Below, piece by piece: positions 35,905 through 64,000 of a stretch of DNA of 64,000 nucleotides (the first letter of the stretch is position 1; the number at the start of each line of letters is the position of its first letter). The position numbers and the translations under genes were made by a program. The notes below the pieces were generated by a model that searched no databases, was not told the origin of the DNA, and saw nothing but the letters and a program-made list of their open reading frames with translations. Origin of the DNA: a virus; the IMG/VR virus record IMGVR_UViG_3300049489_000707, positions 86,726-150,725 of that record. The stretch is one strand, 5' to 3'.

Positions 35905-38793
35905 TTACTTCTTGTCTGAGGGTTTGACGGGGACGCCTTTCTTACCGGCGGCGGTGGAGGCCTTGTTGTCTGCGAGCCACTTGGTCTGCTCCGGGCAGGC
36001 GTGACCCTTCTTTGCGTCTACGGTCTTGCTGCAGTGGGCGCATACGCGGGTCTTGTCGCCCTCATCTTCGCCCTTGCCGAAGAGCTTGCCGAAAATCCCA
36101 GGCTTGGCTGCCGGGGCGGGACGGGCTGCATTCATGACCGGGCCTGCCGATCGAGTAACACCTGCCGCCTTGGGCGACTTCAAGCCGAGCGCCGCACCGG
36201 CACCGGGGAGCTTGGGAGCTGCTGCCGCAGGAGCTGCCGGCTTGGGCTGGAATGCTCCACCCATGGCCGCTTGGAAACCGGCAGCGCGATCAGCATGTTG
36301 CGCGGGGGTGGGCATCTTGGGGGCTGGCGCTGCAGGGGTTTTGACAGCCGCATGTGCCGCACTGATGGGGTCAGCCTGCTTCGCTGCATCCGCGAGCATT
36401 CCCTTGGCCATCGCAGGCGCCTTGGGGGCGCTGGTCGGGACCGAGGTGCCCATGTTGGCGCCGCTCGGGGGCTTGGCCATGGGAGGGGTTGCCGACTTCT
36501 TGAGCTTCGAGCCAGGAAGAATGACGCCACCAGACCCTGCGGTCTTGCTGGACTTTCCAGGCTTGTTGACATGCTTGCCAGCGTCGGGCGGGGTCTTGCT
36601 GCCGGCAACCGTGTGGTTGTCTTTCTTGTTGCCCTTGGCGTCGACCAATTCAGACTTCTTGGCCTCGATGACGGTCTGGCCCTTACCTTGCTTGACAGTG
36701 TAGTCTGCACCAGGAGGGGCGGGGGCGGGCTTCTTGTCACCATGGACGACGATTTTATCGACCGCCTTGTCCATGTCCTCAGCTTTCTCGGCCTTACCAG
36801 GAGTCATCTCCCCGCACTTCTCTAGGCCGTGGGATGACTTACCACACTGTTTGCACAGCTCCTCTTTGGCCATCGACTTGTCGACACCCTTGCCGTTGAT
36901 CTTCCCCGGGGGCACGTCCTCAACGCCAGAGCTTGCCTGGCTGGCCTGATTGTGCTTGTGGTTGGGGATGAGAGACTTCTTCAGCTCGCGGGTGCGCAGC
37001 GCCTCGATCTCCTTGGCGTAGGCGTCAACCTTCTCACGAGTGGCTTTGATGAGAACCTCTCGGGCTTCCTCTGGGGTGTACAGTTTTTCGTCAGCCACTG
37101 GGGTGTCTCCTTCAGTCTTGGAAAAGATTACTGTCGGCGCCTCTGACTTCATGGTCACTTGGGCGCTGCCCGGCTTGAAGCCGGCGTTGGCGGTGCTGTT
37201 GAGGTGTGCAGTCAACATCGAGTGAATCTGCTTGCCCTGGGGATGAGCCTGGAGAGCCTGCAGAAAGGGGCCGTGGTTCATGTGCGACGTGATGTGCTTG
37301 CCACGTGCGGGGTCGCCCTTGGGCATCGCCTTGAGAGCGCCCATAAACCCTTCGACGGTATTGTGCATCGCCGGAGCTTGCGTCACCCCAGCCGCCTTCG
37401 GTGAGGCCAGGCCTGGAAACGACTTCGCCAGGCCCTGCTTCGGGATGAGATCGTGCAAGCCCTTGAGGCCCATCTGGTTGCCAGCGTCCCGCACCATCTG
37501 CAGTGCGTTGTGGAGCGGCACCTTGTGGGAGTGCGGGGTAAAGCCCTCGCCCGAGGGCTCGGTGAACTTGCCGGTCACAGCACGGTGCGCTGCGTCGTGC
37601 ATGACGGTGTTTAGCTCTTTGTGGAAGTCTTCGTCCTTGATGGGCACGCCGACCTGCTTCGATAGCTCGCGCTGCTTGTGCGCTGCCAGCCACTCCCAGT
37701 GGACGGCACGGAGGGCTTCGTTCATGTTGCGGTGGGTGCCAAGCTTACCCATACGCCGGCCTTCGCCGTAGATCTTGTTGACCTCGGGAAGGGTGAGGGC
37801 GTGTGCCAGCTCGTGAATCTGCCGCCAGCCATTGGTGTAGTTCTCATGGCCGAAGTCCCCGCCCGACGAAGGGCTTGGGTCGTACACCACCATGAGGTGG
37901 CCGGTGTTGTAGTTCTTGTTGGCGAGGTCGGGCTTGCCGTACTTGCCACCGGCGTAGTACGTCTTGTAGCCGTGGTCCTGCACGAGATTCTGAATCTCAG
38001 GCAGCTTGCCGTGGTAGTTGTAGTGGAGCAGGTCTTGCTTCGAGCCGGGCTGCACGTTGCCGTAGGGCAGTGCAAACTGCTTGTAAGTGCTGACCCCAAC
38101 ACCAGCTGCCTGGTCGTTGACCGGCTTCGGTGGGGCATCCATGTGGGGATGGGCGCCTGGAGCATCGGCCTTGGTGAGGCCGGGGAGCTGAGGGGCAGCG
38201 TGGTCTTGTTCGTGGTGGGAGCTATGCCCGTCGTGCCACTCGTAGTTGTGGGGGTGGTGACGAACAGGAGCCTGGTCGGCCAGCAGGTCTGCCACTGCGT
38301 TCTTCATCAGGTACGCCACAAGCTCGGGCTCGAACTCTCGTTCGGCTTTGTTGACAGGATCGAGATGATGTATCTTCGACCAGTCAAAGTTGATGCGGAA
38401 GTGCCCATGCCCCGGGACGCTGGTGTAGAAGTCGTCGGGTGGTTGCTCGAAGTGCTCCAGTGGATTCTGCATATCCGAGGCGTGATACTTGCCCTCGTGC
38501 TCACCATTGGTGTAAATGAGCTTATGCTGGCCGTTCTCGCTGTGGATGACCGACTCTTGACCGAACATCTTGCCCAACTGCTTCATCTGGTCCTGGGTCG
38601 CCCCATGGATGATGTAAGAGCGCTCTGGCTCCTTGTACTTGCCGCTGGTGGGCTCGGCGTGGAGGCCCATCTGCTGCAAGGCACCGCCAAGAGCTTCGTG
38701 GCCGCCCTGCACCTGGGACTGGAACAAAGGCTTCTCGCCGGACATGAGCCCGAAGGTGGAACCGCTGAAGATTGGATGTTTCGGGTGGCCCAT
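35905..38793 (-). CDS. Large multi-domain head-associated protein (962 aa): DUF3293-like N-domain, zincin HELAH, Pro/Ala/Lys-rich linkers
   Basis: GKYKEPERSY...LGKMFGQESV; QIHELAHALT...E; start moved to ATG 38793 (AAGGA SD, late motif). Confidence 0.7.
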   Translation of the reverse strand: MGHPKHPIFSGSTFGLMSGEKPLFQSQVQGGHEALGGALQQMGLHAEPTSGKYKEPERSYIIHGATQDQMKQLGKMFGQESVIHSENGQHKLIYTNGEHEGKYHASDMQNPLEHFEQPPDDFYTSVPGHGHFRINFDWSKIHHLDPVNKAEREFEPELVAYLMKNAVADLLADQAPVRHHPHNYEWHDGHSSHHEQDHAAPQLPGLTKADAPGAHPHMDAPPKPVNDQAAGVGVSTYKQFALPYGNVQPGSKQDLLHYNYHGKLPEIQNLVQDHGYKTYYAGGKYGKPDLANKNYNTGHLMVVYDPSPSSGGDFGHENYTNGWRQIHELAHALTLPEVNKIYGEGRRMGKLGTHRNMNEALRAVHWEWLAAHKQRELSKQVGVPIKDEDFHKELNTVMHDAAHRAVTGKFTEPSGEGFTPHSHKVPLHNALQMVRDAGNQMGLKGLHDLIPKQGLAKSFPGLASPKAAGVTQAPAMHNTVEGFMGALKAMPKGDPARGKHITSHMNHGPFLQALQAHPQGKQIHSMLTAHLNSTANAGFKPGSAQVTMKSEAPTVIFSKTEGDTPVADEKLYTPEEAREVLIKATREKVDAYAKEIEALRTRELKKSLIPNHKHNQASQASSGVEDVPPGKINGKGVDKSMAKEELCKQCGKSSHGLEKCGEMTPGKAEKAEDMDKAVDKIVVHGDKKPAPAPPGADYTVKQGKGQTVIEAKKSELVDAKGNKKDNHTVAGSKTPPDAGKHVNKPGKSSKTAGSGGVILPGSKLKKSATPPMAKPPSGANMGTSVPTSAPKAPAMAKGMLADAAKQADPISAAHAAVKTPAAPAPKMPTPAQHADRAAGFQAAMGGAFQPKPAAPAAAAPKLPGAGAALGLKSPKAAGVTRSAGPVMNAARPAPAAKPGIFGKLFGKGEDEGDKTRVCAHCSKTVDAKKGHACPEQTKWLADNKASTAAGKKGVPVKPSDKK

Positions 38794-38803
38794 GGTCATC
38801 CTT

Positions 38804-38810
38804 AAGATTA
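38804..38810 (-). promoter_or_regulatory. Late promoter motif TAATCTT
   Basis: Overlaps upstream TAA stop; 10 nt before ATG 38793. Confidence 0.7.
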
Positions 38811-39938
38811 CTTGCCCTTCTTGCCGAGGGTGTCTTCGTCTCCAATCCACGAAGCTTCGTTGGGGTCGACCTCATCCGGAAGCTTCCCGGCACCGATGAT
38901 CTTGAAGCCCTGGGCGTTCGGGTCGAGCACCCCAGGCGCCTGGGAGGCAAAGTGGGTGACGCGGGGGTCGATGCTTTTCGGCCAGTACTGACGCACGTAG
39001 CCGGTGATGGTCAGGTAGCGGCTGAACACCATTTCCGCCTCGAAGTACTCGTTGCGGTCGAAGTCGGTGCTGTTGACGACAGAGCGTTCGAACCCACGAG
39101 CTTCGAGCAGGGCTTGCTTGTAACGCAGGAGGACAAAGACGAGGATGGAGTGCAGCCAGGTCAGGTAGACGGGCTCTCCAGAAACATGAACGCCGATGAG
39201 GTAGTTCTCACGGTAGGCGACAGACTCCAGCTGGGTGACGTAGCTGGGTTTCTGGCCACGGATGACCGAACCGGTGAAGTCTGCGACGGTTCCCTGCTTG
39301 ATGCTGAAGCTGCCATCCTCGAAAGTCTCTTCGATGGTGTGGACCTTGCCGGTCGCGTCAAGTAGCACCATATTGGGTGCAAGAACCGCGTTGGTGGCGA
39401 CGTCTTCCGGGAGCACCATGATGCCGGTGGCCGCGTTGTACTTGGCCGGCGTGAAAGGGCCCACGATGTTCGGCCAGACGCCATCATTCAGCTCGGAGGT
39501 CTGGTAGTGGACGTCGGCGAGGGTGACCTCGGACTCGGTGCTGTCCTGGAGCTTGATGGTGATGCACGGAACCTGGGCCTCGTTGAGGCGTGGCACCATG
39601 GCAACTGGAATCTTGGTCTTGAGGAACCACTCCTTCGCCCTTTCCACGCTCTTCTCGCCGTAGTCCTTCATGGTCATCTCGTCCTTGGGGAGGGACGCGA
39701 AGACGTAGTCGAGGAGCCAGGGGTTGGCGCGGAGGTCGGCCAGGGCCGCCACGATTGCGGTGCGGATGATGACGTCGCTCTGGTGAACCCCGAGAGCTTC
39801 TGTGGTCAGGCTAGTCGACAAGGGCAACTCCAGTGCTTTCACAAGCAGTGCCTGGCCGTCTGAAGGGCTCAGTGGTACCTGCTGAACGATTGTCTTGATC
39901 GGGGAGATGTACCCCCTGGTCAGCAGTGCTACGGTCAT
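38808..39938 (-). CDS. Neck/tail-completion protein (376 aa)
   Basis: Upstream of sheath region; YRENYLIGVHV...WLHSILVFVLLRYK...FSRYLTITG; GAGG SD at ATG 39938. Confidence 0.55.
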   Translation of the reverse strand: MTVALLTRGYISPIKTIVQQVPLSPSDGQALLVKALELPLSTSLTTEALGVHQSDVIIRTAIVAALADLRANPWLLDYVFASLPKDEMTMKDYGEKSVERAKEWFLKTKIPVAMVPRLNEAQVPCITIKLQDSTESEVTLADVHYQTSELNDGVWPNIVGPFTPAKYNAATGIMVLPEDVATNAVLAPNMVLLDATGKVHTIEETFEDGSFSIKQGTVADFTGSVIRGQKPSYVTQLESVAYRENYLIGVHVSGEPVYLTWLHSILVFVLLRYKQALLEARGFERSVVNSTDFDRNEYFEAEMVFSRYLTITGYVRQYWPKSIDPRVTHFASQAPGVLDPNAQGFKIIGAGKLPDEVDPNEASWIGDEDTLGKKGK

Positions 39939-48143: not shown

Positions 48144-49547
48144 TCAGCCCCCAGGGTTGCGGCTCGAAGTCGGAGTCCCATCGGGGGCCATGACGATACC
48201 GGCCCTGACCTGGCGCCACTTCGTCTTGCCCGTTGCTGGGTCCTGAACCTTCAGCTCGCCACCTTCGTGGGCTGCACTGGGGCCTGGGTCAACCTGGGAG
48301 CCAACTGGGAGGGTCACCTGGTGACGACCGGTCTTACCGGCTTCGAGGGCCGCCTTGTCCATCTTGCTGTAGTAGCTCGGGTCTTCGGTGAGATGGTCCT
48401 TGGCGACCTCTTTAGCTCGGGCTTCATCAAGGCCGTGCTCTTCCATCTCCACCCTCATCCCCTCAGCCAGCTGCTCGGGGTCGAAAGAAGAGTCGGAGGC
48501 GTCGTCCCCCTTGCCACCCGGCATCAAGTCCTTGCGCAGAATCTTGTTGGCCCAGTGGTCCTTGTGGTCGTGGCAATAATCTCCGGTGATGGTGCGCTGG
48601 CAACGACGCTCGCCGAGCTTCCATTTACACCGCCCCACCTTGCCCTCCGCCTTCTGGACTTCCTCTTCTTGCTGAGGCTGTCCACCATCTCCCATGGCGC
48701 TTCGAGCCATGGCAATCATCGCCTGGACAACGCCAACCACCGACTGGTACATCTCGGGGTTGCTCTGTTTCATCTGCTCAAGCGCTGGCGCATTGGCTCG
48801 GACATTCTGGAGCACCTTCACGACCTGCTCGCGCACGCCATCGACCACACCAGAGGGCTTGCCCGCCGGTTGCTGCTGGTCCTTCTGGGCTGCTGCCAGC
48901 TGATGGAAGAGCTGCTCGAAGTCGGCCGCCGTGGGCTTGGGAGCTTCAGCTGGGGCTGGAGCATTGGCGATCTGGCTGTTGAGGGCCTCGTTCTCGCTGT
49001 GCTCGCTTCCTTCAGTCGGTGCGGCTGGGGCGGCTGGAGTGCTACGACTGGCCCCCGCGAAGCCTGCGTTGGAGCCAGCGTTCATGGCGGGCGCCGCCTT
49101 CTGCAGGCCGCTGTCGGGATTCAGGTACTCATCCTGCAGCTTCTCGCTCTCGGTCTTCTCTTTGGCCTCGGCCAGAATCTCGTCGACCTCTTCGGTGTAC
49201 AGCTGGATGCGGTCGCCACCCTGGAGCTTCGCTGCCATCAGACTGCGGTCGGCTTCGGAGAGCTTGGTCCCGACACCCACGCTGCAGGTGCTACCCACGG
49301 CCCCCTCGTACTGCTCGCGGATGCCGGGCAACTCACTGAGGTAGTCGGCCTCAATCTCAAGACGACCCTCGTCGCCACCCACCCCCACGACTTTGCCACC
49401 GTGAGACTCTGCCCAGCTGGCCCAGATACGGTTGCCTCGGTCGATAGCCTGGCCAAGCCTTGCTACTTCCTCAGGATTGTCCGCAAGACTGGCCCTGCCG
49501 ACCATGCGGCCAATGTGGTCACCATCGAAAGAGACGAAGAGCTTCAT
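48144..49547 (-). CDS. Late protein (467 aa): N-terminal mCpol (minimal CRISPR polymerase)-like domain, linker, DUF5661-like domain
   Basis: FVSFDGDHIG, GVGGDEG, TCSVGVG, EADRSLMAAKLQG; DPEQLAEGMRVEMEEH...AKDHLTEDPSYYSKM; start at ATG 49547, 6 nt after late motif. Confidence 0.8.
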   Translation of the reverse strand: MKLFVSFDGDHIGRMVGRASLADNPEEVARLGQAIDRGNRIWASWAESHGGKVVGVGGDEGRLEIEADYLSELPGIREQYEGAVGSTCSVGVGTKLSEADRSLMAAKLQGGDRIQLYTEEVDEILAEAKEKTESEKLQDEYLNPDSGLQKAAPAMNAGSNAGFAGASRSTPAAPAAPTEGSEHSENEALNSQIANAPAPAEAPKPTAADFEQLFHQLAAAQKDQQQPAGKPSGVVDGVREQVVKVLQNVRANAPALEQMKQSNPEMYQSVVGVVQAMIAMARSAMGDGGQPQQEEEVQKAEGKVGRCKWKLGERRCQRTITGDYCHDHKDHWANKILRKDLMPGGKGDDASDSSFDPEQLAEGMRVEMEEHGLDEARAKEVAKDHLTEDPSYYSKMDKAALEAGKTGRHQVTLPVGSQVDPGPSAAHEGGELKVQDPATGKTKWRQVRAGIVMAPDGTPTSSRNPGG

Positions 49548-49553
49548 GGTGAG

Positions 49554-49560
49554 AAGATTA
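49554..49560 (-). promoter_or_regulatory. Late promoter motif TAATCTT
   Basis: 6 nt before mCpol ATG; back-to-back with early promoter. Confidence 0.75.
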
Positions 49561-49563
49561 CCG

Positions 49564-49593
49564 TTGACAGGCGCTGTCGAGAACAGATATGGT
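49564..49593 (+). promoter_or_regulatory. Early promoter (leaderless)
   Basis: TTGACA-18-TATGGT, ATG 6 nt downstream. Confidence 0.7.
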
Positions 49594-49599
49594 TGGGAC

Positions 49600-50478
49600 A
49601 TGAAGACGGAACAACTACTTACCCTGATTGCCATCGCCAACAACGCCACCCTGGCGGACATCCTGGAGGCCTGCGATGAGGCCAAGCGCCAAGGCCCATG
49701 GACGCCGGCCTCAGGTGGCACTGAGCAGATCTTCCGGGCTCGCACCGGCAAGCGGCTCCTGTACTGCTGGCAACAGACCACGGGCAAGCATGCCTACCTC
49801 GACGTGGACTCTGATATCATCCTCAGCGACGAAGAGGCCCGGATGCACCTGAACATGTACTGAGGGCGTCATGAGCAAGAAAAAGCCATTCATGGGGAGG
49901 GACTACCTCTTGCTCAAAATCATCGGCGGTGCTACAAAGGCTGGGGTAGAGCCCGACCGCAAGAAGGAAGCCAACAAGACCGCAGCGAGAGGAAACAAGA
50001 TGAACAGAGCAGACCGACAGAAGCCGCAAGAGAACGGCATGATGGTGGCGGAGTTGAAGCACCTGCGTGCCCAGGTGAAGGCGAAGGACGAGAAAATCGC
50101 CAAGCTGACCGAGGAGGTCCAGGAGCTTCGCGCTCAGGTGAACCTGACAGCCATGCTCGACCCCACCACCGAAGAGAACAAAGCGCTGGCGGAAGAGGCC
50201 AGGAAGTGGGCCGTGAAGTCGGGGCTAATCAGCACGACGGAAGAAGCCAAGAAGTGAGCCTCCAGTTTACCCGAGCCGAGTTCGTCGAGTGCCCTACATG
50301 TAGGGCCAAGCCTGGCTCGCCGGCCCTGTGTCGCGAGTGTCTGGAACGGCGAGAGCTGCATGGGGTACTTCACAGGCTCCAGAGCTGGTTCCCGAACCAG
50401 GCCATGCACCCCTACATCAAAATCTGCACCCACTGTAACGGAACCCCCAACCCATCTTGCCCGGAGCACGGGCGCTGA
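49600..50478 (+). CDS. Three early ORFs (49600-49863, 49871-50257, 50254-50478 Zn finger)
   Basis: Promoter-defined start 49600; coupling. Confidence 0.7.
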
Positions 50479-54651: not shown

Positions 54652-54658
54652 AAGATTA
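54652..54658 (-). promoter_or_regulatory. Late promoter motif TAATCTT
   Basis: Overlaps endolysin TAA stop; upstream of Pth2 leader. Confidence 0.6.
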
Positions 54659-55288
54659 CGGTTCGTCAACCGGCTTCGACTCATCTGCCGGCGGGGGGAG
54701 GACAACCGCAGGCTTCGCCGCTTTCGGCTTCACGCCCCAGGTGGCTCTCTTAAGCCAGTTCTTGCGAAACTTGGCCAGGGCTGGGTTGCGGACGATGATC
54801 CGCTCGTAGTAGGCGGCCATCTCATCGCCAAAGGCCCTCACGAAGTCCTCTGGATTGCAGGCGTTGATGGCGGCAAACGACTTGTCGCCCAGGCTGCCGT
54901 CGACCTTCAGTTCGGGACTTGCGCCCAGGGTGTTGCAGGCTCGCTGGGCGAACTCCGCACAGCGCTTCGGGCCCATGTTCACGGCCGAGTCCATCATCTT
55001 GGTGGCGGCGGTCTGGTCGACCACCCTGCCGTAACCCCACTGGTTCCAGAAGTACTTCCGGTACAGGCTCTCGCAGGTCGCTCTGCTGACAGCCTTCAGG
55101 CACCCGGGGAAGAAGTTGACATGAGGCAGGCCGAGGTCCTGAGGGGTCAGCCCGAGACGCTTGATAGTGAGCATGGACCAGCCCCAGACGGTCTCACCAC
55201 CCGGATCAGCCGGGTCGTCGACCCAGAAGTTGGTGGGGGTGCCCTCGTGGGCCATGATGACAGGAATCGCTGCTTCAAAAGTGCTCAT
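54656..55288 (-). CDS. Endolysin, glycoside hydrolase family 108 with peptidoglycan-binding domain (210 aa)
   Basis: IMAHEG, DDPADPGGETVWG, MDSAVNMGP, VDGSLGDKS, FRKNWLKR. Confidence 0.9.
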   Translation of the reverse strand: MSTFEAAIPVIMAHEGTPTNFWVDDPADPGGETVWGWSMLTIKRLGLTPQDLGLPHVNFFPGCLKAVSRATCESLYRKYFWNQWGYGRVVDQTAATKMMDSAVNMGPKRCAEFAQRACNTLGASPELKVDGSLGDKSFAAINACNPEDFVRAFGDEMAAYYERIIVRNPALAKFRKNWLKRATWGVKPKAAKPAVVLPPPADESKPVDEP

Positions 55289-55293
55289 TGTTC

Positions 55294-56211
55294 TTACCCT
55301 GGCTTCAGGTTGTCCTGGTGGAGGTAGTCTTCGTGGTACTGATTCAGCTTCGGGTTCCACCACTTGACCTCGTAGTAGTGTCCCGGGCCGTCGATGTCGT
55401 TGTCTTGGTACTGGGCCGACGTCACCTTGCCCTTCCAAGGGACGGCCTGCTGGTCGACGTGGGTCACGGTCTGGCCCGGCTTGTACAGCTGGCCGCCGGC
55501 CTTCAGCTTCGCCTTCTTGGCCTCGGTCTCACGCTGTCGAGCCAGCTCGTGAAAGCCTGGGTCGCTCATCATGGCGTGATGGGCGTCTGCGAGAATGCCC
55601 TCCACCTTGGTGCGAGCCAGCTGCTTGCGAGCCTCGATTTTGGGGACGATCGACGACACGCCGTCTGCTACCTGGGGGCCTGCAGCTGCAGTCTCTTTGA
55701 CGGCCGCGTCCCACCCTGCCGGGACCTTGGCTGGGGTTGCAGCTGGGGCAGGTTTAGCCGCCGGCTTCTTGAAAGGAAGCACCTTGCCGTCTGCCTTAGC
55801 CAGCTCGCCCTTCTTCTCTTCCTTGGCCGGCTTGTCCTGGAGCAGGAACGCATCGCCTCGATGCGGCTTGAAGCGGTAGAAGTTCTCCTGCTTATCGGCC
55901 AGGCCCTGAATCTCGTGGGGAACCGGCCCCATGGGGTCAAGGCCCAACTCCTTCATGTGCAGCTGGTACATCATGCCGTGCTTGTGGCCTTCCTCGTGGC
56001 TGCCTGCCGCCTGAGCTGCCTTGAGCCCCTGCATGTGGTACGCTGCTGCCTCACGGTGCTTGTCCTGCTTGTACTCGTGGTGAGCGCGGTGCTCGGCGTC
56101 TGGCCGGGCCATGCGGTGCTTGAACTCGTAGACTGCCGCCCTGGATTCCAGGTCGTGCTTGTCTTCGTCCTTGGCAATCTTCCGACCGTTCCAGCTTGGT
56201 GCGTTATCCAT
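55294..56211 (-). CDS. Head-associated protein (305 aa), His-rich N-domain and SH3-like C-domain
   Basis: LESRAAVYEF...EAHRAH-like motif; ELAKAD linker; YKPGQTVTH...YYEVKW. Confidence 0.6.
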   Translation of the reverse strand: MDNAPSWNGRKIAKDEDKHDLESRAAVYEFKHRMARPDAEHRAHHEYKQDKHREAAAYHMQGLKAAQAAGSHEEGHKHGMMYQLHMKELGLDPMGPVPHEIQGLADKQENFYRFKPHRGDAFLLQDKPAKEEKKGELAKADGKVLPFKKPAAKPAPAATPAKVPAGWDAAVKETAAAGPQVADGVSSIVPKIEARKQLARTKVEGILADAHHAMMSDPGFHELARQRETEAKKAKLKAGGQLYKPGQTVTHVDQQAVPWKGKVTSAQYQDNDIDGPGHYYEVKWWNPKLNQYHEDYLHQDNLKPG

Positions 56212-57505
56212 TGCGGCTCCTGAACGTCTTCATCAGTGCCTTGACCGTCTCAGCGTCGATGTTGGAGCTGAAGTCCAGCACGTAGCCGTCACCGTAGGCT
56301 GTGGTCTTGATGCTCTTGGCGAGGTCGCGGAAGCAGATGCAACCCTTGAATTTGTTGTTCTCGAACTGGTGGCCTTCGCAGATTTCACAGGGCCGCTCGG
56401 CTTCGGACTTGCCGACAGCGAGGCCTGGTTGCTTGGGAGCCTTGGGGAGCTTGGGCTTCGGCGCTGCGCCTTGAGTGGCCTGGCCCATGGTCGGCTGCTT
56501 CTGCGGAGGCATGGCGCCTTGAGGGCCTTGCTGCGCGGTAGGCTTGTGGCTGCTGCCTGGTAGCTCGACCTTGCCGAACTGAGGATTCTTCGCGTTGCCG
56601 GCCCAGAGCGCTTCGCCCTCGTCCGTTTGTAGCTTTGATGGATGCACTGTTTTTCCTGTAACTTTCTGGGCGTGGGCATACATCGCCGACGCAACACCTC
56701 GACGCTGATGAGCTTCATCAACGCCAACGGTGCCAGCAACCAGGGCGTTGCCATGGTGCTTGAAAGTGGCGACACCAACTGGGTCGCCGATGTGGTCTGG
56801 GTGAAATGCCCGGACGGTAGTCATTGAGCCGTTGTGCTCATGATGAAAGGTGTAGCCGGCGTTCGGGTCCAAGACCTTCTTACCCAAGCCAGGCTTGAAC
56901 TCACCCTTGTACTTCTTCTGATGCCAGTTGGCGATCTCGCCCGCGTCTTTCAGATTGCCGATGCCGCGCTGGACGGTCGACTTGGAGAGGGTGTGAACTA
57001 CCAGGTAGGGGCGCTCTGATGAGCTGTCACGCTCTACGTGGTAGTGACCGTGCTGGGTGATAGTCTGGGGACTGAGCACCTTGGGTGACTTCAGTTCCTG
57101 CATCAGCACCTGGGCCTTGGCCAGGGTGTCGATGCTCTTGCCGAGCTTCACCAGTACAGTGTCACGGACATCGGCGTCAAGAGTACCGGTCTCTACGCCC
57201 AGGGCCATGGCGATGCTGGCAGCGAGGTGGTAAATGCTGGCTTGCTCGAAGCTGTAAACGCCTTCGTTGAGGGTGATACTGCCACTGAAGCCACTGTCCG
57301 ACTTCTGAAACTGGACGTAGCTGTTCTCGATGCCTGGGATTGGCCCCTCGTACTCGTGGGCAGCGGTGAATGAGAGCCAGCCTACAATGGCGCGGGGGAT
57401 GAGGATTTGATCCAGCTGAGGCTCACGCTCAGCAGCCTTCCGCAGGGCTTGTGCCCCGTCGGTACCCAGCGCTGCTGCCATGAATTTCCTGCCCAAGTCG
57501 GACAT
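56204..57505 (-). CDS. Head-associated multi-domain protein with GNAT acetyltransferase domain (433 aa)
   Basis: VGVDEAHQRRGVASAMYAHA acetyl-CoA motif A; C-terminal CEIC...CIC; GGAG SD at ATG 57505. Confidence 0.7.
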   Translation of the reverse strand: MSDLGRKFMAAALGTDGAQALRKAAEREPQLDQILIPRAIVGWLSFTAAHEYEGPIPGIENSYVQFQKSDSGFSGSITLNEGVYSFEQASIYHLAASIAMALGVETGTLDADVRDTVLVKLGKSIDTLAKAQVLMQELKSPKVLSPQTITQHGHYHVERDSSSERPYLVVHTLSKSTVQRGIGNLKDAGEIANWHQKKYKGEFKPGLGKKVLDPNAGYTFHHEHNGSMTTVRAFHPDHIGDPVGVATFKHHGNALVAGTVGVDEAHQRRGVASAMYAHAQKVTGKTVHPSKLQTDEGEALWAGNAKNPQFGKVELPGSSHKPTAQQGPQGAMPPQKQPTMGQATQGAAPKPKLPKAPKQPGLAVGKSEAERPCEICEGHQFENNKFKGCICFRDLAKSIKTTAYGDGYVLDFSSNIDAETVKALMKTFRSRNG

Positions 57506-57521
57506 CGTCGTCTCCAAGGCT

Positions 57522-58789: not shown

Positions 58790-59768
58790 ATGAAAACGAA
58801 CCTCGGCACCAAGGTCTACTACACCGGCGACATGGCCAACAGCAGCGGCAACTTCGAGGTGGTAGACTTCGCAGGAAGCTACGTCACCCTTCGAGAGATT
58901 GACGGAGAGGGCCGGCGGTTCCAGGGGATTCACACCCACCAGATCGGCGACGTCTACCAGGGCCACTGCAACCCCCGCTTCGTCACCGAAGAGGCCCGTC
59001 AGGCCTTCCGGAAGGCGAGGGGCCTGTGAAGCTGGACTCTACGCTGACCCCCAAGGAACTCAGGCTGGTCAGGGCCGACCTGAAGGCCAGGGGTCTGAAG
59101 CTCCCCAAGAGCGGCTGGACGATTCAGCTCAGCAACGGTACCCGGGTCTGTAGGGACCAGCACGGCTACTACTTGACTGGACCATTTCCAGGTGTTACAT
59201 CACCGTTGGCCAAAGGCCACGTTTACATCACAGAAAGGCAGCACACATGAGCGAAGCACAGATAGACACGTTTGTAGTCCTGACTGAATCCGGCGACCTT
59301 CAGGAGAGAAACGAGAGGGTTCTGGAGGCCGTCAAGAGGATGCCACAGCAGCAAGGCACCTACCAGCAGGTCATCGACTTCATCGCTGGAACGAATGACG
59401 TCCCCATCGCCGACGGGAACGCCATCTCGGCACCCATCATCAGCGCTCTTTCGGAGCTGTACTACGAGGGCTGGCTCAATGGCGAAATCAAGGTCCCAAA
59501 TCCGAGAGCGCGGAAGACCTACACAAAGAAGGGGAAGCTTCGCAAGCCGAAAGCCAACACCTTGTACCGCTGGCTCGGTTACAAGGGCCCGGAGGTCCCC
59601 AAGGACGAGTCGTGGAAGGAGTACGCCGAACGCCTGGAAGAGGAGCTGAAGCTTGCCAAAGAAGAAGCCAAGCTCATGGAAGAGCTTGCGACCGAAGCAG
59701 GCCGGCGCTACGCCGAGGCGATGGAGACAATCCAAAAGCTTACGGCGTCGCCAGCCAAAGCTGGTTGA
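58790..59768 (+). CDS. Three early ORFs (58790-59029, 59026-59250, 59247-59768 wHTH/coiled coil-like)
   Basis: Promoter-defined start 58790; GTGA/ATGA coupling. Confidence 0.65.
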
Positions 59769-62700
59769 TGGCCTGGCTCACGCTGGGCTCGGTCAGGAGC
59801 TTGCGAATCCTGACCAGTCTCTCCAGGCTGGGCTGAGGGTCGATGCCGTACCGAGCCAGGACCTGCTCTAGGTCGCCTCCGTGGACACCTTCCAGCCAGG
59901 TCCGCAGCTGCTCGTCGGAGTCCTTGTTCAGGCTGGGCATGGCCCGGAGACGCTGCTCAGGGAGCAGGCCGTGCCAGTTGTCCCCCTTCCAGGCTCGCAG
60001 GTAGTACGGGATGAAGCTGTTCTTGTCACGGGCCGGGTCGAAGCTCGGGCCAGCAAAGGCGCTACCGTGGTCGATGAGGGCTACGGGGTGGTTGTCTTTC
60101 TCGGGACCGACCATCAGGTTCTGGCCATGCCGGTCTGGGTTGCCCAGGATATAGTCTAGGACCGCCCACTTGTGCAGCTCACCAGTGTGGCGATACTTCT
60201 CCAGCGCCTTGTGGGGCAGGCCTGGGTCCTCGAACTTGAGCTTCTCCAGGTTCTTCCAGCTGAAGGGAAGCAGGTGCAGGGCGGCCACTTCCTGACCGTC
60301 AATCAGCAAGAGGTCGGCCCGTGGCACGCGGTTGCCCAAGCCCAAGGCGTCAGCCACGTGCCAGAAGGCGGCTTCGCGCCGGCTCTGGTTGGCACCTTCC
60401 TCTCTGGCGCCCAAGGCGGGGCTCTGCTTGCCACTGCCGGGCTTCAGGAGGTACATCATACCCGTCTGGGGGTCGCGCACCATCATGGTGCCTTTGGAGT
60501 GCTTGCCACCAAGGTGGAGGTCTTGGTCGGTCTCAGCGCTGAACCCTCGACGTACCCCATCAGCAACCTCGGCTCCATCTGGCATCAGGGCCTGGATCTC
60601 GTGGGTCCTGTGCGGCTGATTCTTGTTGAGCTTCCCGTCCTGGAGGCTGACCACAGCGAGGATGGCCCTCTTGTTCTTATTATCGACGGGCAGACCCACG
60701 GAGGTGAGAGCGGCTACGTCTGCGTCAAGGCCAGAGAGAAGGGCTTGACGGAACAGGTCATAGTCAGGCTCGGTGTGAGCCAGGAACTGCGCTGCCTTCA
60801 GGAATGCTTCGAACTTCGGCTGCATACCAAGCTGGTCCTCGTAGGTATTATCATACCCTACGCCAGGATCGGACTTGACAATCTGCTCAACCTGTACATC
60901 GGCCTTTCGCAGGTCGGCCCATTCGGTCAGGAGGTCGGCCTCGGTCTTGAGGATGACTCCAACCTCTTGAGGGGTTAGATTCTGGGCCTTGATGCGAAGC
61001 TTCTGCCAGATTTGCTTGGCGATGTCGTGGCTGGCTTTCTCAGCGTTGCGGTGGCCGAGAATCTTCATGGCCTTGTGGGCCTTGTGCCGCCACATCTGGT
61101 CCTGCAGGTAGTTCTGGAGGTAGGCGATCCGCTCTTCTGGATGTCTCAGGGCGTCGTAGCCCTTGAGGGACCAATCGGTGAGCTTTTTCAGGTGTGCGTG
61201 TTCGGTCGGGTCGAGGGCCGCCAGCGTAGTGGCAACAATGCGATGGCCAGCTTCCTTGCCGTAGGTCTGCTTCAGGTGAGCGAAGATGCCGTGCTGTGTC
61301 TCGTGGCCCAGCGTACCAAGCAGGCCTGGGCCCGACTTGACGCTCATACTGAACTTGCGGCGTGCCGGAGCCACCGGAGTGTTCCGCTTCATGTTGTAGC
61401 GGACGTACCCGTGGCTCATCGCCGTTTGGAGGTCAGGCTTGTCAGCGCCCACGACTGCTATCTCCTGGTGTGCCTCGGGGGTGCGAATCATCGGGGTGCT
61501 GGGCACCTTGTTTTGGCCCAGGCGCGGGTACATCAGATAGCCGACCGTCTTCGCCAGCAGCTCGTGCTTGAGACCTGGAGGTGTGAGGTGGTGGTCAGTG
61601 ACCATGGAGCGTTGCTCTTCCGTGCATCGCGGGTGCAGGGCGGCCAGGGTCTGGAGGTCGGGGTCGAAAAGGACAGACTGAATGTGTTCCGGCGTCAAGT
61701 CGGGACGGCTCAGTGCCGCCTTTCGAGTGTAGATGTCTTCATGATGGAGCGCCTCGTGAATCATGGGCGCGGTCATCTTGGGGTGACGTGCAGCGAAAGC
61801 CCGGACCTCAGGGTCTTCGTCTTGGAGGGCCATACGAAGATGGTAGGGGGTGACGTGCTTGTTCTTCAGGGCGAGGATGCGCTCACGAGGATTCTCGTGC
61901 TGCAGCATCGCTTCAAGAGGGTCGTGTTCGGTCTTCTTGAGCTGTGGCTGGCCCTGCTTGCCGTGCAGCTGCATGGCAGTGTACGACTGGACGTAGTGGT
62001 CGTCCTTGATTTGATCTTCAGTCGCGTTGGCGCAGGCCGTGGAGCCCCAACGCCAAGCATAGGCCGCCTTCTGCGGGTCACCATGACGGTGCTTGAGACG
62101 TGCGAAGTGAGCACTGGCCAGGAGGTTGTAGAACTTGGGGTCGTTCTTGAACTTCTCCAGGAAGGTCTCAGGCGAGCTGAGGCCTGGGTACTTCTGGTTC
62201 ATCAGCTTGGACTTCGCGTACTCCTCATGCGCGGTCACCGGCTTGAAGCCGAGAGCACCGAACGCAGTATGGAACTCGCCCTTCTTGTGAGCGGCGTGCG
62301 CCATGTTCTGGCCGAAGCTCGACTCCAGATGGGCGATGGGGATGAGATCAGGATGCAGCTCCTCGGGGGTCCAGGCGGGGATGCCGCTGGCCTGGGCGAC
62401 CTCATTCATCTGCGGCTTGACAGTCTGGTGCTGCTCTGGAACATGCGGGGCCGCTGGGGCGTGGAGAGCACCGCCCATGGCAATGCTGCCAGCGAGTGCT
62501 GCGGTAGCCAGGAAGCCCTTTTTGAGACCGGCTTCAGGGTCTTGGGAGTCTAGATTACGGAGTTGTCCGGTCACGGGACTGTAGCGCTGCAGTCCCACGT
62601 GTTTGGCTGCCTCGTCTCGGTTCATGAAGACCCCGGCGTGAGTCACAAACCCGGCTTCCCAGTCGGAGCTGTTGTGTGGACCGTCTTCCCGGTGATTCAT

Positions 62701-64000
62701 GGAGCCGCCCAGAAGCCAAGGCTCGATGTTGTGGTACGCTCCGGTCTCGACAACAGTGCCATCTTTGTGCCGGAATCCAGCATTCCGGAACTCGCCCTTG
62801 GAAAGGATTTCCTCGGTTTTTTGGAGGTCCTCTGACTTGAGGGCGTAGTCGTAGCGGCCCACACGGTCATCGTAGGGGCCCTTCTTCGTCTTCTTGCCAG
62901 GCAGCTTCGGGGCTTGAGTCGCCTTGTACTCAAGCCCGTGCTTCTCGGCGAGCTTCTGGTGAACCCTAGAGGCCATGGAGCTGTGGATGTTGCCAGACAC
63001 ACTTCGTGCGCCGGCGTGGTAGGCGTGTGCCATCACCGACTCATACAGAGGCAGACCGAGCCCCTTGCCTCGGAACGACTCTTCGAGGTCGGACTGAATG
63101 AAGCGCAGATTGCCATGCTCCATCTGACCTCGGACATAGCCTACTGGCTGACTGCCGGAATGGAGCGTTGCGTGGATTGTATTGTCGGGCTCGTGTTCGA
63201 CTCGAACCTCGAATCCCCTGTGCTCAGGGCTCAATACGTGGCTGTAGTTGAAAACGTTCTTTCCGCGCTCAGTCGTGAACTTGAGGCCGCCACGGGGAAT
63301 ATCTGCGATGGCCATCTTTTCCATGTCTTCCGACTTGGCAACAATATGGCGAACGGATAGCGGATGGAAGTAGGCAAGGGCGTCCTTCACGCCGTAGCTG
63401 TGGTAGCCATGGTAGCCAAGCTTCTTGAGCTTCTTCTCGACCTGGTCAAGGTCGCTGGCCTCGAACATCATGCCGTACTTGGTCTGCTTCCACTTGCCGG
63501 CCTTGAGGTTGAGCTTGTCGTCACCCATGTCGTATAGACGAGTGCCGGCGGGTAGCTCGCCGTGGTAAAGGTGGGCAGCCGATGCAACGTGGGCTTCGGG
63601 CGTGCCCGGACGTGTGTAGTAGTACGTCCTTGGAATTCTCTTGGAGCGATTGCGCTCTTGACCTGCAGCTCCCGTCCCCTGGAACTTCGGGTCGAGTGTC
63701 TTCAGGCCTGGAGTGGTGCTGTAGTGCTGCACAGGCAGCGGCTTGGTCATCAGGAGGTCTTTCTTCTCCAGCGGCTCGTCGACCTCGCCATCTTGGCAAC
63801 CGAGCAGGCGCAGTGTGATGTTCTTTTTGGAGTGCAGGTTGCTCATGATCTCCTCAGGAATATCATGCGCCTCAACCCATTTCCACTCGGAGCACTCTTC
63901 GTCGGGGTCCTTGCCACCATCCGGGTCGCCAACCACGAGGCAACGGAAGCAGTAGATGTGCAAGTCTTCCTTGGCCTCACCCACGCCCAGGTACTCGAAG
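59740..64000 (-). CDS. Giant polyvalent protein (>1419 aa, 5' end outside window): NUDIX-like tail, ART-like, GNAT, SLT/lysozyme, HEAT repeats, zincin, PI3/4K-HipA-like kinase
   Basis: Frame open to position 64000; motifs DEECSEWKWV; QHYS...LDP...GTG...RTYYY...PE; FRGKGLG; IAHLESS; LQDEDPEVR; HETQH; GNPDRHGQN...LIDHG. Confidence 0.8.
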   Translation of the reverse strand, partial: FEYLGVGEAKEDLHIYCFRCLVVGDPDGGKDPDEECSEWKWVEAHDIPEEIMSNLHSKKNITLRLLGCQDGEVDEPLEKKDLLMTKPLPVQHYSTTPGLKTLDPKFQGTGAAGQERNRSKRIPRTYYYTRPGTPEAHVASAAHLYHGELPAGTRLYDMGDDKLNLKAGKWKQTKYGMMFEASDLDQVEKKLKKLGYHGYHSYGVKDALAYFHPLSVRHIVAKSEDMEKMAIADIPRGGLKFTTERGKNVFNYSHVLSPEHRGFEVRVEHEPDNTIHATLHSGSQPVGYVRGQMEHGNLRFIQSDLEESFRGKGLGLPLYESVMAHAYHAGARSVSGNIHSSMASRVHQKLAEKHGLEYKATQAPKLPGKKTKKGPYDDRVGRYDYALKSEDLQKTEEILSKGEFRNAGFRHKDGTVVETGAYHNIEPWLLGGSMNHREDGPHNSSDWEAGFVTHAGVFMNRDEAAKHVGLQRYSPVTGQLRNLDSQDPEAGLKKGFLATAALAGSIAMGGALHAPAAPHVPEQHQTVKPQMNEVAQASGIPAWTPEELHPDLIPIAHLESSFGQNMAHAAHKKGEFHTAFGALGFKPVTAHEEYAKSKLMNQKYPGLSSPETFLEKFKNDPKFYNLLASAHFARLKHRHGDPQKAAYAWRWGSTACANATEDQIKDDHYVQSYTAMQLHGKQGQPQLKKTEHDPLEAMLQHENPRERILALKNKHVTPYHLRMALQDEDPEVRAFAARHPKMTAPMIHEALHHEDIYTRKAALSRPDLTPEHIQSVLFDPDLQTLAALHPRCTEEQRSMVTDHHLTPPGLKHELLAKTVGYLMYPRLGQNKVPSTPMIRTPEAHQEIAVVGADKPDLQTAMSHGYVRYNMKRNTPVAPARRKFSMSVKSGPGLLGTLGHETQHGIFAHLKQTYGKEAGHRIVATTLAALDPTEHAHLKKLTDWSLKGYDALRHPEERIAYLQNYLQDQMWRHKAHKAMKILGHRNAEKASHDIAKQIWQKLRIKAQNLTPQEVGVILKTEADLLTEWADLRKADVQVEQIVKSDPGVGYDNTYEDQLGMQPKFEAFLKAAQFLAHTEPDYDLFRQALLSGLDADVAALTSVGLPVDNKNKRAILAVVSLQDGKLNKNQPHRTHEIQALMPDGAEVADGVRRGFSAETDQDLHLGGKHSKGTMMVRDPQTGMMYLLKPGSGKQSPALGAREEGANQSRREAAFWHVADALGLGNRVPRADLLLIDGQEVAALHLLPFSWKNLEKLKFEDPGLPHKALEKYRHTGELHKWAVLDYILGNPDRHGQNLMVGPEKDNHPVALIDHGSAFAGPSFDPARDKNSFIPYYLRAWKGDNWHGLLPEQRLRAMPSLNKDSDEQLRTWLEGVHGGDLEQVLARYGIDPQPSLERLVRIRKLLTEPSVSQAINQLWLATP

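Follow-up and report, generated by a model that had tools for sequence, protein, structure and literature searches.

The stretch of DNA analyzed here (the window, 64,000 nucleotides, positions 86726-150725 of the 168,933-bp virus record IMGVR_UViG_3300049489_000707) stems from a 169-kb soil phage akin to Myxococcus phage Mx1, and its end is occupied by a giant polyvalent-type gene on the minus strand (59740-64000). The gene encodes a protein of 1,488 amino acids (P0002; all residue numbers refer to it), in which about eight unrelated enzyme and binding modules follow one another from an N-terminal NUDIX domain to a C-terminal kinase domain. The explanation favoured here, to which a probability of about 0.6 can be given, holds that an Mx1-like phage with a contractile tail carries this polyvalent protein in its virion. 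Such a protein would be cut at the junctions between its modules, with a transglycosylase and a hydrophobic segment acting at the host envelope and the NUDIX, GNAT and kinase modules acting on host molecules early in infection.

A single uninterrupted frame runs from the stop codon (59740-59742) to the end of the window, where it accounts for residues 70-1488. It continues for 206 bases in the neighbouring DNA (window-equivalent 64001-64206), which holds the first 69 codons, and is open over 4,467 bases in total (L002 2466-6932). The start codon is TTG. It is preceded by the ribosome-binding site AAGGGGG at a distance of eight bases and by the stop codon of the next gene upstream at a distance of 10 bases, and close homologues begin at the same residue. 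Since five independent metagenome proteins with 77-91 % identity align from residue 1 to the C-terminus, the open reading frame (ORF) is not a fusion artefact, and it is confirmed as real. An earlier interpretation made from the letters of the window (the sequence-only reading) had described a giant minus-strand ORF lacking its 5' part and a chain of unrelated domains. The missing part has now been retrieved, and the positions proposed for the individual domains lie within the ranges mapped here. The modules are given below with their window coordinates, all on the minus strand.

The most widely kept unit of the family is a hydrophobic segment coupled to a transglycosylase domain, which occurs in 66 of 99 homologues and at any position in the chain. 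In the giant protein, the Ala/Gly-rich segment comprises residues 563-585 (62452-62520) and reads KKG followed by FLATAALAGSIAMGGAL. K-K-G and about 18 Ala/Gly-rich hydrophobic residues adjoin the transglycosylase on its upstream side in nearly all 66 homologues with this domain, and the segment precedes the domain wherever the latter is located. It resembles a signal-anchor or a signal-arrest-release (SAR) type segment and may act as one. The domain itself (residues 596-748, 61963-62421) has E628 as its candidate catalytic residue, followed by S629. Both are invariant in the 66 sequences and are placed at a helix end in the same way as the catalytic Glu-Ser of the family-1 enzymes.

The fold of this domain was assessed with an AlphaFold2 model built on the 66 sequences (predicted local distance difference test, pLDDT, 90.7). 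All top Foldseek matches of the model in the PDB are lytic transglycosylases, with a best E-value of 0.02. Using VIA-align, the model superimposes on Slt of P. aeruginosa (5ohu) with a Z-score of 12.0 and a root-mean-square deviation (rmsd) of 3.2 Å over 127 residues. The top 50 VIA matches are without exception lytic transglycosylases, goose-type or invertebrate lysozymes, or lysozyme-like chitinases, and Z-scores of 9-11 were obtained for Slt70, MltC, MltE, Cj0843, phiKZ gp144 and the T7 core protein gp16. Likewise, transglycosylases, lysozyme-like proteins and virion lysins, among them PRD1 P7, make up almost all named matches in a viral structure library. Sequence profiles were less informative: the Pfam model SLT (PF01464) has no match in the phage genome at E <= 10 and matches only two of the 66 family members (best E 0.016), and a search of the family profile against PDB sequences gave nothing useful. 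A lytic-transglycosylase (SLT / goose-lysozyme-like) fold is well supported by these model comparisons, in agreement with the SLT/lysozyme-like domain with a catalytic Glu that had been noticed before.

At the C-terminus, a small helical region is followed by a PI3/PI4-kinase-type domain (together residues 1114-1488, 59743-60867). It reaches 37.7 bits against the Pfam model PI3_PI4_kinase (PF00454; cut-off 27.1, E 2.8e-9). K1255, E1278, D1358-x-H1360-x-x-N1363, D1379 and the Gly-rich loop are invariant in 47 sequences; the corresponding key stretches are the Gly-rich G1234..G1239, D1358-R-H1360-x-x-N1363 and D1379-H-G1381. The catalytic loop of the family profile aligns with ATM and PI3K in the PDB. 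The domain that had been described simply as a kinase is well supported by these profile matches as a predicted PI3/PI4-kinase type, with all catalytic residues conserved, an assignment that does not distinguish between a protein and a lipid substrate.

The N-terminal NUDIX domain covers residues 1-145, of which residues 70-145 (63772-64000) lie in the window. Its canonical Nudix box (residues 43-65) is located just outside, in the retrieved part, and is complete: G43, E49, R57, E58, L59, E61, E62, G64 and L65 agree with the pattern G-x5-E-x7-R-E-U-x-E-E-x-G-U. A phmmer search against PDB sequences returned diphosphoinositol-polyphosphate, Ap4A and ADP-ribose hydrolases with E-values of about 6e-7, and homologues match the Pfam NUDIX model (PF00293) at E 1e-17 to 1e-22. 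The NUDIX assignment, for which only the C-terminal part had been visible in the window, is therefore well supported. For the GNAT-like acetyltransferase domain (residues 293-462, 62821-63330), the Pfam score is below the cut-off (PF00583, 15.4 bits, cut-off 20.7, E 0.023). The acetyl-CoA loop R-G-K-G-L-G of motif A is conserved among the family members, with G384 invariant, a PHROG acetyltransferase family matches at E 0.003, and 14 of the 15 PDB matches of the family profile are GNATs (best E 0.004). The GNAT domain of the sequence-only reading is hence retained as a moderately supported prediction from sequence profiles. The adjoining small domain (residues 463-562, 62521-62820) is conserved in nine relatives and carries the motifs FRHK..G.VVETG..H and EAGFVTH.G.F.NR.EA; its nine members gave no Pfam match and no useful match to PDB sequences.

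Two further modules are located between the transglycosylase and the kinase. HEAT / LRV-like helical repeats (residues 760-880, 61567-61929) were detected by repeat profiles. The profile of this family matches alphaRep proteins in the PDB with an E-value of 5e-11, and 26 of the 27 members with repeats match Pfam HEAT at E-values up to 1, mostly below its cut-off. HEAT-like repeats, which had already been suspected, are well supported as a prediction at the profile level. The HExxH module (residues 881-1098, 60913-61566) contains H968-E969-T-Q-H972 on a long helix after three strands. H968, E969, H972, G983 and E1024/E1025 are invariant in 31 sequences. The model (pLDDT 87) consists of three strands and a helix, the long HETQH helix, and a helical half starting with two Glu. 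Compared with 48,161 representative chains using VIA, its top six matches are chains of anthrax lethal factor, Certhrax and Pro-Pro endopeptidase (PPEP), with Z-scores of 4.4-5.2 and 134-158 aligned residues, and other zincins follow lower in the list. Anthrax lethal factor and PPEP (M34) share with this module the HExxH on an active-site helix after a small sheet and a Glu about 50 residues downstream; they differ in that the similarity is restricted to the fold, at a low score and without a sequence-level match. The zincin proposed from the HETQH motif thus keeps its conserved residues, and a lethal-factor/PPEP-like zincin fold is moderately supported by the model.

Domain A (residues 150-292, 63331-63759) had been described as ART-like. 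The profile search against 1.84 billion representatives found 1,283 clusters of this domain at E <= 0.001, and its conserved residues are H161, S163, Y197, E204, Y214, Y225, D226, D230 and G264-Y-H266-G267. Since neither domain A of the giant protein nor that of 50 relatives has a Pfam match, it represents a large family for which the Pfam copy used contains no model. The ART-PolyVal model (PF18760) has no match in the phage genome even at E <= 10, and the family profile found nothing useful among PDB sequences. A remote similarity was detected when domain A was compared with the aligned ART-PolyVal domains of homologues by hhalign (P 4.5e-4, probability 33 %); the resulting alignment is collinear over 116 columns and pairs HYS with YHGT, G-Y-H-G with G-Y-D-G and F-H-P with F-H-P. 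In line with this, the ART-PolyVal hidden Markov model (HMM) scored more than 5 bits in 16 of 50 real domain A sequences and in 11 of 1,000 shuffles, with top scores of 20.4 and 8.8 bits, respectively. Most of this signal comes from the C-terminal half. The active site of the polyvalent ARTs is described as a His in strand 1, a Tyr in strand 2 and an Asp in strand 5 in PMC5512222; H161 and Y197 are conserved in domain A. Because the profile signal is weak and a His is found at the position of the catalytic Asp, domain A is not called an ART here. The ART-like domain of the sequence-only reading therefore persists as a real conserved domain with remote similarity to ART-PolyVal, and its identification as an ART does not. 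Domain A is weakly supported as a putative relative of ART-PolyVal, with both its fold and its activity uncertain.

The C-terminal half of domain A (L-Y-D ... G-Y-H-G-Y) also stands alone, directly after a ParB-like D-G-N-H-R domain, in four proteins (P0094, P0092, P0068 and P0074), and it is found in this form at residues 1385-1447 of an Mx1 protein. Since this half also occurs separately, domain A may be built of two separable sub-modules.

At least 99 clusters of homologues of the giant protein were found in a search of a large protein collection. BLAST coverage along the giant protein falls into blocks, and the order of these blocks differs between homologues. NUDIX is the commonest N-terminal module of the family, some homologues add PBECR5, ART-PolyVal, ParB_N or YunG domains, and many are encoded on contigs of 150-178 kb, which is the genome size of Mx1-like phages. 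PF26820 is contained in the precomputed Pfam lists of nine homologues (P0006, P0007, P0017, P0038-P0041, P0062 and P0075).

The nearest cultured relative is Myxococcus phage Mx1, with a genome of 169,621 bp and a contractile tail (PMC10720576). In its genome (OR576727.2), a 1,479-amino-acid protein annotated as NUDIX hydrolase (WNM70333) is followed by a 619-amino-acid protein annotated as kinase (WNM70334), and this locus is also located downstream of thymidylate synthase. About 41 % identity over 58 % of the giant protein and the GNAT, NUDIX, SLT and kinase modules are shared. In contrast, the order in Mx1 is GNAT, a true ART-PolyVal, NUDIX, SLT and half of domain A, with the kinase in the next gene, and neither the HExxH module nor the small domain nor the N-terminal half of domain A was matched in the Mx1 protein. 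The suggestion that the combination of domains might be new has to be abandoned in view of at least 99 related clusters and of the reordered modules that Mx1 distributes over two genes.

Polyvalent proteins of phages and conjugative elements were defined as a class by Iyer, Burroughs, Anand, de Souza and Aravind in 2017, and the modular shuffling of domains is their signature (PMC5512222). The giant protein agrees with this class in several respects. One large polypeptide, in which eight or nine modules were mapped, combines unrelated effector domains (GNAT, lysozyme-fold, lethal-factor-like HExxH, ART-related), its gene is located among virion genes, and the domain order is shuffled between relatives. 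Among the hallmark domains of the class, PBECR5, ART-PolyVal and ParB_N occur in homologues and the lysozyme fold and GNAT in the giant protein itself, with a weak link to the MPTase. The membership proposed by the sequence-only reading is supported on each of these points. There are also differences from the class as described in the accessible part of that paper. NUDIX is mentioned there only once, whereas it is the commonest N-terminal module here. The kinases described there belong to a different, truncated STY-type family instead of the PI3/PI4-kinase type, and neither the coupling of segment and transglycosylase nor the junction motif treated below is part of the description. MuF, SNF2 helicase and methylase domains were not detected in the giant protein.

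With the polyvalent concept (PMC5512222) and with the annotated homologue in Mx1, part of this picture is already known, and packaged Nudix and ART proteins of myoviruses have been published as well (PMC9503650). A PI3/PI4-kinase-type module in the polyvalent class, the segment before the transglycosylase, the junction motif and the size of the domain A family appear not to have been described in the papers searched.

A short motif, [LIMFV]-x-K-[STA]-[ED], occurs six times in the giant protein, starting at residues 289, 461, 756, 1085, 1099 and 1109, and all six copies are located at module boundaries. The first of them is VAKSE (residues 289-293, listed at 63121-63135). Shuffles of the giant protein contain 0.6 copies on average and never more than four. 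The excess extends to the family, with 281 copies in the 99 homologues compared to 53.7 +/- 7.4 expected, and domain interiors, which make up 40 % of the residues in homologues, hold only 20 % of them. In 144 other proteins carrying domain A, 231 copies were counted against an expectation of 49.8 +/- 7.1. Within the genome, the giant protein has 4.0 copies per 1,000 residues and the rest of the proteins 0.6, a ratio of about 6.7. The head protease sites of T4 and phiKZ end in Glu. Since the motif likewise ends in an acidic residue, the junction motifs are proposed as sites of proteolytic processing and may serve as such. An Ala/Pro/acid-rich protein of 313 amino acids, which is encoded directly upstream of the major capsid gene (L004:1092-2033, minus strand) and is likely a scaffold, also carries 3-4 copies.

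Under the favoured explanation, one gene of the late cluster would give rise to a chain of independently folding modules, from NUDIX through kinase, which would be packaged in the particle and exit with the DNA. In the envelope, the hydrophobic segment and the transglycosylase would make an opening in the peptidoglycan in the manner of T7 gp16. A head protease or the protein's own HExxH module would separate the enzymes from one another by cutting at the junction motifs, which end in Glu or Asp. The freed NUDIX domain would then hydrolyse nucleotide-derived molecules, the GNAT domain would acylate and the kinase would phosphorylate host targets, all early in infection. A more specific version of this explanation is tentative and rather doubtful. 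It supposes that the junction motif is the code by which a head-maturation protease, or the lethal-factor-like peptidase within the protein, recognises its cleavage sites, so that a packaged polyprotein would be freed in the host as about eight enzymes, including the first virion-delivered kinase of the PI3/PI4-kinase type and an unmodelled ART-PolyVal-related family of more than 1,200 clusters.

Known systems provide precedents for the individual steps. T7 gp16 is a virion-internal protein with a lytic-transglycosylase domain that is ejected into the envelope and cuts the peptidoglycan there. The fold match between the two domains has a Z-score of 9.6 and an rmsd of 3.1 Å over 117 residues. 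Unlike the giant protein, gp16 lacks NUDIX, GNAT, kinase and peptidase modules, and its transglycosylase is found at the N-terminus with no hydrophobic segment in front of it. T4 Alt, the T4 internal proteins and P1 DarB/DdrB share the concept of head-packaged, protease-trimmed enzymes that are injected with the DNA. The T4 internal proteins are trimmed by a protease that cuts after Glu, and Alt is an R-S-E ART. No sequence relationship to any of these T4 and P1 proteins was detected for the giant protein. According to a statement quoted in PMC5512222, P1 DdrB is trimmed by its own peptidase domain. Using HHpred, the same paper connects the metallopeptidase of polyvalent proteins with lethal factor, in agreement with the best structural matches of the HExxH module, and suggests that this enzyme divides polyvalent proteins into units.

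Several observations weigh against this explanation or parts of it. Its presence in the particle and its exit together with the DNA are inferred steps. With a single membrane-spanning segment, the N-terminal half and the C-terminal half would be separated by the membrane, which makes sense only if the protein is cut or if the segment is no genuine membrane anchor. The zincin fold match is weak (best Z 5.2), and Foldseek found no credible match for the HExxH model in the PDB. In domain A, the position aligned to the invariant ART Asp (G-Y-D-G) is H266, which is variable in the family. The junction motif is equally in excess whether or not a homologue has the HExxH module, and cleavage in trans by another protease is therefore no less likely than self-cleavage. 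With regard to the former, Pfam Peptidase_S77 and S78 were not found in the phage genome, and PHROG searches of the ORFs of the head module identified only the capsid protein and no prohead protease. The motif could also simply be a style of linker. Finally, a late operon is not certain because thymidylate synthase is encoded upstream and the block is thus not purely structural.

The last point leads to the strongest alternative, a multi-enzyme protein that stays out of the virion and acts in the producing cell, where it would take over the host, counter its defences or assist in lysis. This is unlikely in our view, yet it has to be taken seriously. Thymidylate synthase and small non-structural genes just upstream of the giant gene, a classical endolysin 4.3 kb downstream, and an internal signal-anchor-like segment that could export the transglycosylase part, as in SAR endolysins, would fit such a role. 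On the other hand, the giant gene is flanked by predicted virion proteins. The gene 10 bases upstream matches tail-fibre and head-tail-adaptor families of PHROG, and 1.3 kb downstream a 288-amino-acid protein is encoded that matches a family of virion structural proteins. Tail sheath and head-decoration-like genes follow further along on the same strand. In addition, relatives of the giant protein carry domains that are typical of injected polyvalent proteins, and with its separate endolysin the phage already possesses a lysis enzyme.

A variant of the favoured explanation sees the main role of the giant protein in structure, as an ejection or channel protein comparable to T7 gp16, with the other modules accessory or partly inactive. 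Segment and transglycosylase as the unit kept by most homologues, the fold match to the N-terminal domain of gp16, and the absence of the aligned catalytic Asp from domain A speak for it. However, the catalytic residues of NUDIX, kinase and HExxH do not vary within the family, which points to selection for enzymatic activity, and the long helical or coiled regions of ejectosome tubes are missing, except for about 120 residues of HEAT repeats. This variant is accordingly quite improbable. An artefact of assembly or gene calling that fused neighbouring genes is hardly credible: the kinase is indeed a separate gene in Mx1, but the frame is uninterrupted over its whole length and the five metagenome proteins are collinear with it from end to end. 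A tape-measure protein was considered as well and rejected, as the product is a chain of globular enzyme domains without a long helical ruler and its gene is located 24 kb from the sheath gene.

Polyvalent proteins are predicted and hardly tested phage weapons delivered with the DNA, and the family of the giant protein makes this class testable. Mx1, which grows on Myxococcus xanthus and has the same modules, offers a cultured handle. The coupled unit of segment and transglycosylase suggests how such a protein may cross the envelope, and the junction motif predicts exact cut positions. The PI3/PI4-kinase-type domain would add a kinase type that is not described for the polyvalent class, and domain A a large family that has no Pfam entry.

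The genes downstream of the giant gene comprise small genes, the 288-amino-acid protein, a 437-amino-acid protein and the GH108 endolysin. A 160-kb relative keeps the order of thymidylate synthase, giant gene, a 290-amino-acid protein, a 422-amino-acid protein (GNAT) and endolysin. The endolysin (54656-55438, minus strand) consists of GH108 and PG_binding_3 and is separate from the transglycosylase of the giant protein. The 437-amino-acid protein (56204-57517, minus strand) has a weak Pfam GNAT match and two junction motifs, and its position downstream of the giant gene is the one kept in the 160-kb relative; a BLASTP comparison with the giant protein showed no significant similarity (best E 2.1). 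Junction motifs also occur in further proteins: a 547-amino-acid protein of the late cluster (48144-49787, minus strand) without a PHROG match has one, and a 981-amino-acid protein encoded directly upstream of the tail sheath gene (35905-38850, minus strand), with a weak match to S-adenosylmethionine (SAM) methyltransferases at its N-terminus, has three.

Outside the window, three ORFs upstream of the capsid gene, a second giant ORF encodes 1,342 amino acids (genome 4156-8184, minus strand). Its C-terminus matches the kinase profile of the giant-protein family (E 1.8e-13, residues ~1097-1269), and it contains two junction motifs, one of them at residue 9. Judged by this profile match, the phage may possess two polyvalent proteins whose kinases are paralogous. 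The capsid gene itself is split over both ends of the record with an overlapping part (L004:1-1056), and the record therefore represents a circularly permuted complete genome.

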